From: Pseudomonas phage phi9_PA9
Reading direction: 5' to 3' (one strand)
DNA length: 64,000 nt
Sequence record: PQ093904.1
The notes below the pieces were generated by a model. That model ran no database searches and was not told the origin of the DNA. It saw only the letters and a list, made by a program, of their open reading frames with translations. This document shows positions 12,894-12,920 of the stretch, piece by piece; within the stretch, counting starts at the first letter, position 1; every line of letters starts with the position of its first letter. The position numbers and the translations under genes are program-made.

Positions 12894-12920
12894 AAAAAAA
12901 TTTGAGATTTATATTACTAA
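12894..12920 (+). promoter_or_regulatory. Copy of the promoter-like motif AAAAAAATTTGAGATTTATATTACTAA
   Basis: Near-identical to the copy at 24392; sits 70 nt upstream of the highly codon-biased gene at 12990 within a 310-nt AT-rich intergenic region. Confidence 0.55.

Follow-up and report, generated by a model that had tools for sequence, protein, structure and literature searches.

Repeated intergenic elements of Pseudomonas phage phi9_PA9 are probable early promoters of the phiKZ type

The repeated elements found between the genes of Pseudomonas phage phi9_PA9 (sequence record PQ093904.1) are, in our judgement with high confidence, the early promoters of a phiKZ-type jumbo phage, and they would be read by the RNA polymerase (RNAP) that is carried in the virion. 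The analysis covered one stretch of 64,000 nucleotides, hereafter referred to as the window. The motif and its statistics, the position and orientation of its copies, their identity with mapped phiKZ promoters and their conservation across genera were observed directly, and from the phiKZ literature we infer the early timing in phi9_PA9 and the recognition by virion RNAP.

According to megablast, the window belongs to Phikzvirus and shares ~97% identity with ~45 phiKZ-like genomes of Pseudomonas aeruginosa phages, and it is collinear with positions 32,657-98,543 of phiKZ (NC_004629.1), to which it is ~97% identical. With the annotation transferred from phiKZ, the window runs from PhuZ (gp39, 3' end only) to gp96 and carries the genes for DNA polymerase (gp50) and ChmA (gp54), the virion RNAP gene gp80, and the genes gp55, gp68, gp71, gp73, and gp74 of the non-virion RNAP (nvRNAP). 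Its coding density is 91%, which leaves 9% non-coding DNA. The last 28 kb on the right of the window, from gp76.4 to gp96, hold none of the nine promoter elements; they consist for the most part of virion and internal-head genes, for which the published phiKZ promoters are middle or late ones (bioRxiv 10.1101/2023.10.13.562163 Table S3).

Two group I introns were also identified on the + strand at 16618-16938 and 30845-31071 (Rfam RF00028, 80 and 81 bits), the former after gp55 and the latter between gp71 and gp73; nvRNAP genes hold both of them. The intron at the first of these places accounts for a short match, at ~16850-16941, to phages of E. coli and Pectobacterium. The HNH endonuclease ORFs that phiKZ carries at these introns, gp56 and gp72, are both missing from phi9_PA9, so its introns are ORF-less.

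The elements of the window fall into two layouts. Type A consists of an A-tract followed by TTnA-GATn-TATATTAC, and type B reads ATTYAAA-N5-TTTAA-A(c/a)(a/g)(g/c)-TATATTAC-AAATGTG. Genome-wide, phiKZ early promoters comprise ~20 of type A and 13 of type B, and the window holds seven and two, respectively. The elements, together with two terminator-like hairpins found by the terminator scan, are as follows:

1905..1942, + strand: type B early-promoter-like site before gp41.3 (1970), predicted +1 G at 1942
3193..3230, + strand: type A, the weakest copy, after the divergent minus-strand gp42 and before ORF 3239-3667, core TATATCAT, predicted +1 G at 3230
10122..10142, + strand: terminator-like GC hairpin then TTAT, directly upstream of the 10145 element
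10145..10182, + strand: type A early-promoter-like site before gp50.1 (10213), degenerate core TATATAGT, predicted +1 G at 10182
12240..12277, + strand: predicted type A early promoter before gp53 (ATG 12312), after the divergent minus-strand gp52, variant core TATATCAT, predicted +1 G at 12277
12887..12924, + strand: predicted type A early promoter before chmA (gp54, ATG 12990), core TATATTAC, predicted +1 G at 12924
17290..17327, + strand: predicted type A early promoter before a gp58.1-like small ORF (17352-17540), core TATATCAC, predicted +1 G at 17327
24386..24423, + strand: predicted type A early promoter before gp68 (nvRNAP fifth subunit, ATG 24450), core TATATTAC, predicted +1 G at 24423
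29465..29502, + strand: type A early-promoter-like site after the minus-strand ORF 29095-29469, core TATATCAT, predicted +1 G at 29502
35723..35752, + strand: terminator-like hairpin (12 pairs, 6 G-C) then T-run, directly upstream of the 35769 element
35769..35806, + strand: predicted full early promoter of type B, after a terminator hairpin and before a mini-ORF and gp76 (35894), predicted +1 G at 35806

The first-pass annotation of this DNA had reported a promoter-like motif in seven places (starting at 3206, 10151, 12246, 12894, 17297, 24392, and 29471), and all seven are present within 1-2 nt of where it put them. The exact 10-mer AGATYTATAT is common to all seven and occurs eight times in the window against 1.2 expected, a count that none of 100 shuffles reached. 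Seven of these eight matches are the annotated sites, all of them intergenic and on the + strand (P = 3e-9 for at least seven of eight matches being both, given 9% non-coding DNA). The eighth match, AGATTTATAT at 48250 (- strand), was set aside as chance because it lies antisense inside gp84 and outside the 16 best positions of the weight-matrix scan described below. The description of the copies as near-identical holds for those at 12894 and 24392, which have at most three mismatches to the 26-mer given, and not for the other five, which differ from it at 5-9 positions; the pairwise identity of the 38-nt elements is 53-84%. The 26-mer with up to three mismatches matches only two of the seven sites and is therefore too strict, so the core, the published consensus and a position weight matrix (PWM) were used instead. 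A G located 6 nt after the TATATNNN core is found in all seven sites, and the same G position is kept in all nine elements of the window.

All nine elements are wholly non-coding, lie on the + strand and are co-oriented with the next gene, and the distances to the next start codon agree with the 10-120 nt that had been proposed. The predicted 5'UTRs are 9-132 nt long to the next annotated gene and 23-29 nt to small unannotated ORFs at two sites. The shortest belongs to ORF 3239-3667, whose true start codon may be further downstream, because the predicted start at 3230 leaves a 9-nt leader to the first ATG. The genes named as served by the motif were found downstream as well, namely chmA (gp54), gp68 (fifth nvRNAP subunit), and gp71 (nvRNAP beta-like).

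The resemblance to the phiKZ early (virion-RNAP) consensus, which the first-pass annotation had noted, is borne out by the "consensus early promoter" of phiKZ, tatattaaaaaaaatttaagatgtatattacaaatgtg, given in a transposon study (PMC12676376 Table S1), which is essentially the same as the motif described. Scanning the window with this published 38-mer gave nine sites on the + strand, the seven already described and two further ones. One of the two (1905-1942, 28/38 matches) had been overlooked, and the other (35769-35806, 29/38 matches) had been taken at 35790 for a partial copy, but is a complete predicted early promoter of the second type.

Evidence for a promoter function comes from mapped transcription starts of phiKZ, to which four of the seven sites correspond. 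ONT-cappable-seq, which has a start resolution of 1-2 nt, placed phiKZ starts of the class "early promoter" at 44937 (P025), 45583 (P028), 51729 (P030), and 57998 (P034), all credited also to Ceyssens 2014 and/or Wicke 2021, P028 to both (bioRxiv 10.1101/2023.10.13.562163 Table S3). By sequence, the copies at 12246, 12894, 17297, and 24392 are the counterparts of P025, P028, P030, and P034, respectively. The elements 12240-12277, 12887-12924, and 24386-24423 are identical to P025, P028, and P034 at 38 of 38 nt, and the stretch 17283-17531 has 94.8% identity to phiKZ 51685-51933, the region of P030 and gp58.1. In phiKZ coordinates, the +1 G predicted from the alignment falls at 44936, 45582, 51729, and 57998, that is, 0-1 nt from the mapped starts and exactly on those of P030 and P034. 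The rule holds more widely, as each of the 16 phiKZ early promoters that were mapped and contain the core has a G at box end +7 and a reported start at +7 or +8, and the phiKZ early start has been described as lying 6 nt downstream of the consensus (PMC5312081). The phiKZ equivalents of the other five of the nine sites (34598, 35890, 42841, 63077, and 70353) have no start in the ONT table (bioRxiv Table S3). The same study recovered 16 of the 32 known phiKZ early promoters, and the published totals are 28 (Ceyssens et al. 2014), 32 (Wicke et al. 2020, PMC8244752), and 18 (Putzeys et al. 2024, PMC10914365).

Independent evidence was provided by a PWM trained only on 12 mapped early promoters from those parts of phiKZ that are not homologous to the window, and run over both strands (~128,000 positions). 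Its eight best positions, all intergenic and on the + strand, are the elements with predicted starts at 35806 (43.7 bits, the top score of the window), 24423 (39.9 bits), 12924 (28.9 bits), 1942 (23.9 bits), 29502 (12.7 bits, rank 5), 10182 (12.6 bits, rank 6), 17327 (12.2 bits), and 12277 (7.2 bits, rank 8 of 128,000), while the ninth element (3230) ranks 11 with 3.9 bits; the mean maximum in 100 Markov-1 random sequences was 6.2 bits. Applied to the whole phiKZ genome at a threshold of at least 5 bits, the PWM gave 34 matches, 33 of them on the + strand, compared with 28-32 published early promoters.

Because the core is similar to TATAAT, the elements might be host sigma-70 promoters, with TATATT as the -10 box for the RNA polymerase of P. 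aeruginosa, and one weak match (TTGTAA-18-TATATT, 9/12) does overlap the 12894 site. However, that is one site in nine, and the others have no -35 hexamer at 16-18 bp. Sigma-70-like matches are in fact fewer than in shuffles (71 against 88 expected, and 51 against 79 expected), neither the conserved blocks (-18 to -15, and -30) nor the invariable spacing of six nucleotides before the G fit such a promoter, and phiKZ infection is resistant to rifampicin according to the phiKZ literature. A host promoter is thus highly improbable, and this reading was rejected for want of a -35 hexamer at the right spacing and for matches below the shuffle level. Just as improbable are middle or late promoters of the nvRNAP. 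The start G is preceded by T here as it is in late TATG promoters, but TATG is present at -3 to +1 in none of the nine sites (which read CATG, CCTG, ATTG, TTGG, ATTG, GGTG, CATG, TTTG, and TGTG), and on this account the late-promoter reading fails; according to the phiKZ literature, all four bases of the late consensus are required in vitro. In addition, the middle motif TACT near -22 is not present at that position. Purified nvRNAP, offered an early, middle or late template in run-off assays, transcribed robustly only the late one (phiKZ literature), and it is from this result and phiKZ biology that the sites are assigned, as probable targets, to the virion RNAP. In the phiKZ literature, use of the virion RNAP is itself deduced from timing and rifampicin resistance, and in vitro reconstitution of its initiation at these promoters was not found in the literature searched.

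The proposal that several copies sit where rightward transcription must restart was confirmed from the context of each site, as minus-strand genes lie just before the copies at 3206 (gp42), 12246 (gp52), and 29471 (ORF 29095-29469), and terminator-like hairpins just before those at 10151 and 35790. The hairpin at 10122-10142 follows the DNA polymerase gene gp50 and is similar to the published phiKZ terminator motif. Downstream of the element 29465-29502 there is a 36-codon ORF (GTG 29531-29641), followed by gp71 (29634). ORF 3239-3667 (+ strand, 142 aa), downstream of the element 3193-3230, is equivalent by position and length to KTN4_059 and is unannotated in the phiKZ RefSeq record. The minus-strand ORF 29095-29469 encodes 120-124 aa and is 48% identical to CDS0368 of phage HPP-Temi (E = 3e-45), a match which marks it as a real conserved gene; no gene is annotated in the equivalent gap between gp70 and gp70.1 in phiKZ RefSeq.

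The box is degenerate in four elements (3193-3230, 10145-10182, 12240-12277, and 29465-29502), which raises the possibility that only some copies work and that those at 3193-3230, 10145-10182, and 29465-29502 are decayed or very weak relics, the genes behind them being reached by read-through. We consider this possible, though doubtful. These three are absent from the ONT start list, and their cores (TATATCAT, TATATAGT, and TATATCAT, respectively) go with scores of 3.9-12.7 bits, while the strong sites reach 29-44 bits. At the phiKZ equivalent of the 29471 site (63077) the +1 G is missing, the 10151 site has no counterpart in HPP-Temi, and a predicted early promoter of phage AR9 lost its activity through one mismatch (PMC5312081). 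Against this, P025 has the same TATATCAT core and its window copy scores 7.2 bits, yet it has a mapped early start, and the copies at 3206 and 29471 keep both their position and their sequence in a different genus. Moreover, for the gene after the 3206 copy (sORF007, equivalent to KTN4_059), a primary start at 10 min post infection was reported by Wicke et al. (PMC8244752), read-through after a minus-strand gene would have no rightward transcript to draw on, and the ONT study found just half of the known early promoters. Within phiKZ, the elements 3193-3230 and 10145-10182 are matched at 38 of 38 nt (35890) and 37 of 38 nt (42841), respectively.

The two type B elements are close to, or the same as, phiKZ sequences. 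The one at 1905-1942 is identical in phiKZ at 34598. The one at 35769-35806 differs from its phiKZ copy at 6 of 38 positions, in surroundings that are ~98.7% identical, and the phiKZ equivalent (70353), a 39-mer, is identical to the mapped early promoter P125. Between this element and gp76, a hydrophobic mini-ORF of 21 codons was noticed at 35829-35894 (+ strand; MKKKLIMITIVVIAYKLWEWK), which is not annotated in phiKZ and whose stop overlaps the gp76 start (TAATG). As a class, type B promoters stand before groups of very small genes of unknown function, and the genes behind type A promoters are infrastructure genes, namely chmA, the gp36-PhuZ operon, and the nvRNAP genes gp68, gp71-74, and gp121-123.

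In two places, the alignment of the window with phiKZ is interrupted exactly at the edge of an element. P030 and gp58.1 form a cassette of ~250 bp (window 17283-17531), and the upstream edge of the promoter is exactly where its homology to phiKZ begins; the cassette lies between gp56.1 and gp57 here and between gp58 and gp59 in phiKZ, KTN4, and SL2, and the arrangement of the window is common to many other Phikzvirus isolates. In the comparison of window 29503-29641 with phiKZ 63078-63275, homology breaks right after the core TATATCAT, and phiKZ gp70.1 is replaced by the unrelated 36-codon ORF (GTG 29531, stop 29641), which overlaps the gp71 start. These junctions might suggest that the repeats are mainly recombination or cassette-boundary sequences, or operator sites, but we regard this as very unlikely as their main role, because the primary 5' ends mapped in phiKZ, which fall at the fixed G, show promoter function, and a boundary role could be a by-product of repeated homology that is compatible with it.

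The TATATCAT copies of the window (3216-3223, 12263-12272, and 29488-29495) are exactly those adjoining divergent minus-strand genes, and the same pattern is seen at the phiKZ 63077 site and in HPP-Temi near 13746 and 3690. By our own count from annotation tables, TATATCAT is present at three of six divergent sites in phiKZ and at none of the 27 others (p ~0.004). Read from the other strand, the TATATCATAG form gives CTATG, which contains the late TATG motif, and at 12268 this CTATG would lie 38 nt upstream of the first ATG of the gp52 ORF (12230); the ONT table lists no minus-strand start at the position of the 12268 TATATCATAG. These side observations can be joined into a single reading, in which the two discrete classes could be unlike in strength or timing, or in how the virion RNAP or a co-injected factor recognises their upstream part, swaps of small early-gene cassettes may have their break points at the promoters, and the TATATCAT(AG) variants might embed an antisense late TATG start. 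Taken as a whole, this reading is speculative and rather unlikely.

Beyond Phikzvirus, the copy upstream of chmA is conserved across genera. A type A copy with the six-nucleotide spacing to the G precedes chmA in the window, HPP-Temi, PhiPA3, 201phi2-1, Phabio, and Noxifer, which represent six genera (Phikzvirus, Pawinskivirus, Miltoncavirus, Serwervirus, Phabiovirus, and Noxifervirus), across which the ChmA proteins are 37-49% identical (tblastn against GenBank phages). A related-locus search in IMG/VR found no ChmA relatives. HPP-Temi, which belongs to the genus Pawinskivirus and has ~74% nucleotide identity where alignable, yielded four sites in the PWM scan: before a gp53-like gene (13746, after a gp52-like minus-strand gene), before chmA, before a gp68-like gene, and one of type B (at 1284, 40.8 bits), which stands just before a small + strand gene in a syntenic small-gene cluster. 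By eye, similar elements were found before the gene that follows the gp42-like minus-strand genes and before the fused gp71-73 gene, the latter in the same position, after the homologous minus-strand gene. Early promoters of 201phi2-1 were also reported to mirror the phiKZ ones (PMC11512511).

In the chmA 5'UTR, a palindromic decamer, CTTGATCAAG, was noted at window 12954-12963, at +31 to +40 when counted from the early start predicted there. The decamer is invariant in five genera (the window, HPP-Temi, PhiPA3, 201phi2-1, and Phabio) but not conserved in Noxifer, occurs once in the whole phiKZ genome (~0.3 expected), and has flanks that are still palindromic with different bases (TT..AA, TA..TA, and TTAA..TTAA). 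It could control chmA, either as a hairpin in the RNA or as an operator to which a dimer binds.

According to the phiKZ literature, a multisubunit RNA polymerase is packaged in the virion and enters the cell together with the DNA, the nvRNAP subunits are among the early gene products, and the nvRNAP transcribes late TATG promoters. Each predicted promoter in phi9_PA9 is a ~38-bp AT-rich element with a -10-like box TATAT(T/C)A(C/T) at -14 to -7 and AGAT (type A) or A-C/A-A/G-G/C (type B) at positions -18 to -15. Further upstream come T-rich sequence near -20 and, near -30, either an A-tract or an ATTYAAA block, and transcription would start at the conserved G 6 nt after the box. The injected multisubunit virion RNA polymerase would fire these promoters straight after infection, independently of host RNA polymerase and of new protein synthesis, and they would start or restart rightward early transcription after terminators and minus-strand genes. 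Early genes driven in this way would include chmA, for the nucleus shell, as well as gp68 and gp71-74, which code for nvRNAP subunits, and the nvRNAP would then take over middle and late transcription.

Compared with the early promoters of phiKZ, nothing essential differs: the genus and essentially the DNA itself are shared, and the consensus agrees, as do the TATATTAC box, the +1 G six nt after it, the preference for one strand, and the genes that follow. The differences are confined to the P030 and gp58.1 cassette, which is before gp57 here and after gp58 in phiKZ, to a different small ORF after the gp71-upstream promoter, and to the six of 38 positions in the type B element before gp76. The strategy is shared with phage N4, whose early genes, among them those for a second phage polymerase, are transcribed by a polymerase that is injected along with the DNA. 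The N4 virion RNAP consists of a single subunit, and the promoter it recognises is a DNA hairpin, whereas here the polymerase is multisubunit and the promoter linear and AT-rich, without an obvious hairpin.

T4 early promoters are read by host sigma-70 RNAP. The PeSL cassettes of T4-type phages (promoter-early plus stem-loop), reportedly described by Arbiol and colleagues in 2010, share with the present elements an early promoter beside a terminator hairpin, small variable ORFs, and mosaic junctions at the regulatory element. Shuffling through phiKZ-type elements is only suggested, by the two junctions in the window.

Among jumbo phages that encode RNAPs, 201phi2-1 (PMC11512511), AR9 (AAATATATATTAT-6N-G, PMC5312081), and phiR1-37 likewise have an extended AT-rich element near -10 with a start 6 nt downstream, and this element is ascribed to the virion RNAP. 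The chmA copy of the window can be aligned with those that precede chmA in 201phi2-1, Phabio, PhiPA3, and Noxifer. In other such phages, however, the consensus varies from phage to phage, and AR9 DNA contains uracil.

The finding is already known in its essentials: the phiKZ early promoter was described in 2014 and refined in 2020 and 2024, so nothing fundamental is added to the biology of these phages, and it is already in use as an engineering part (PMC12676376). Among the side observations, the existence of two promoter architectures, the cassette junctions at promoters, and the chmA-leader palindrome are small leads rather than established findings. For annotation, the early transcription units of phi9_PA9 can now be drawn with starts predicted to the single nucleotide, and chmA, gp68, and gp71-74 each receive their own predicted early promoter.
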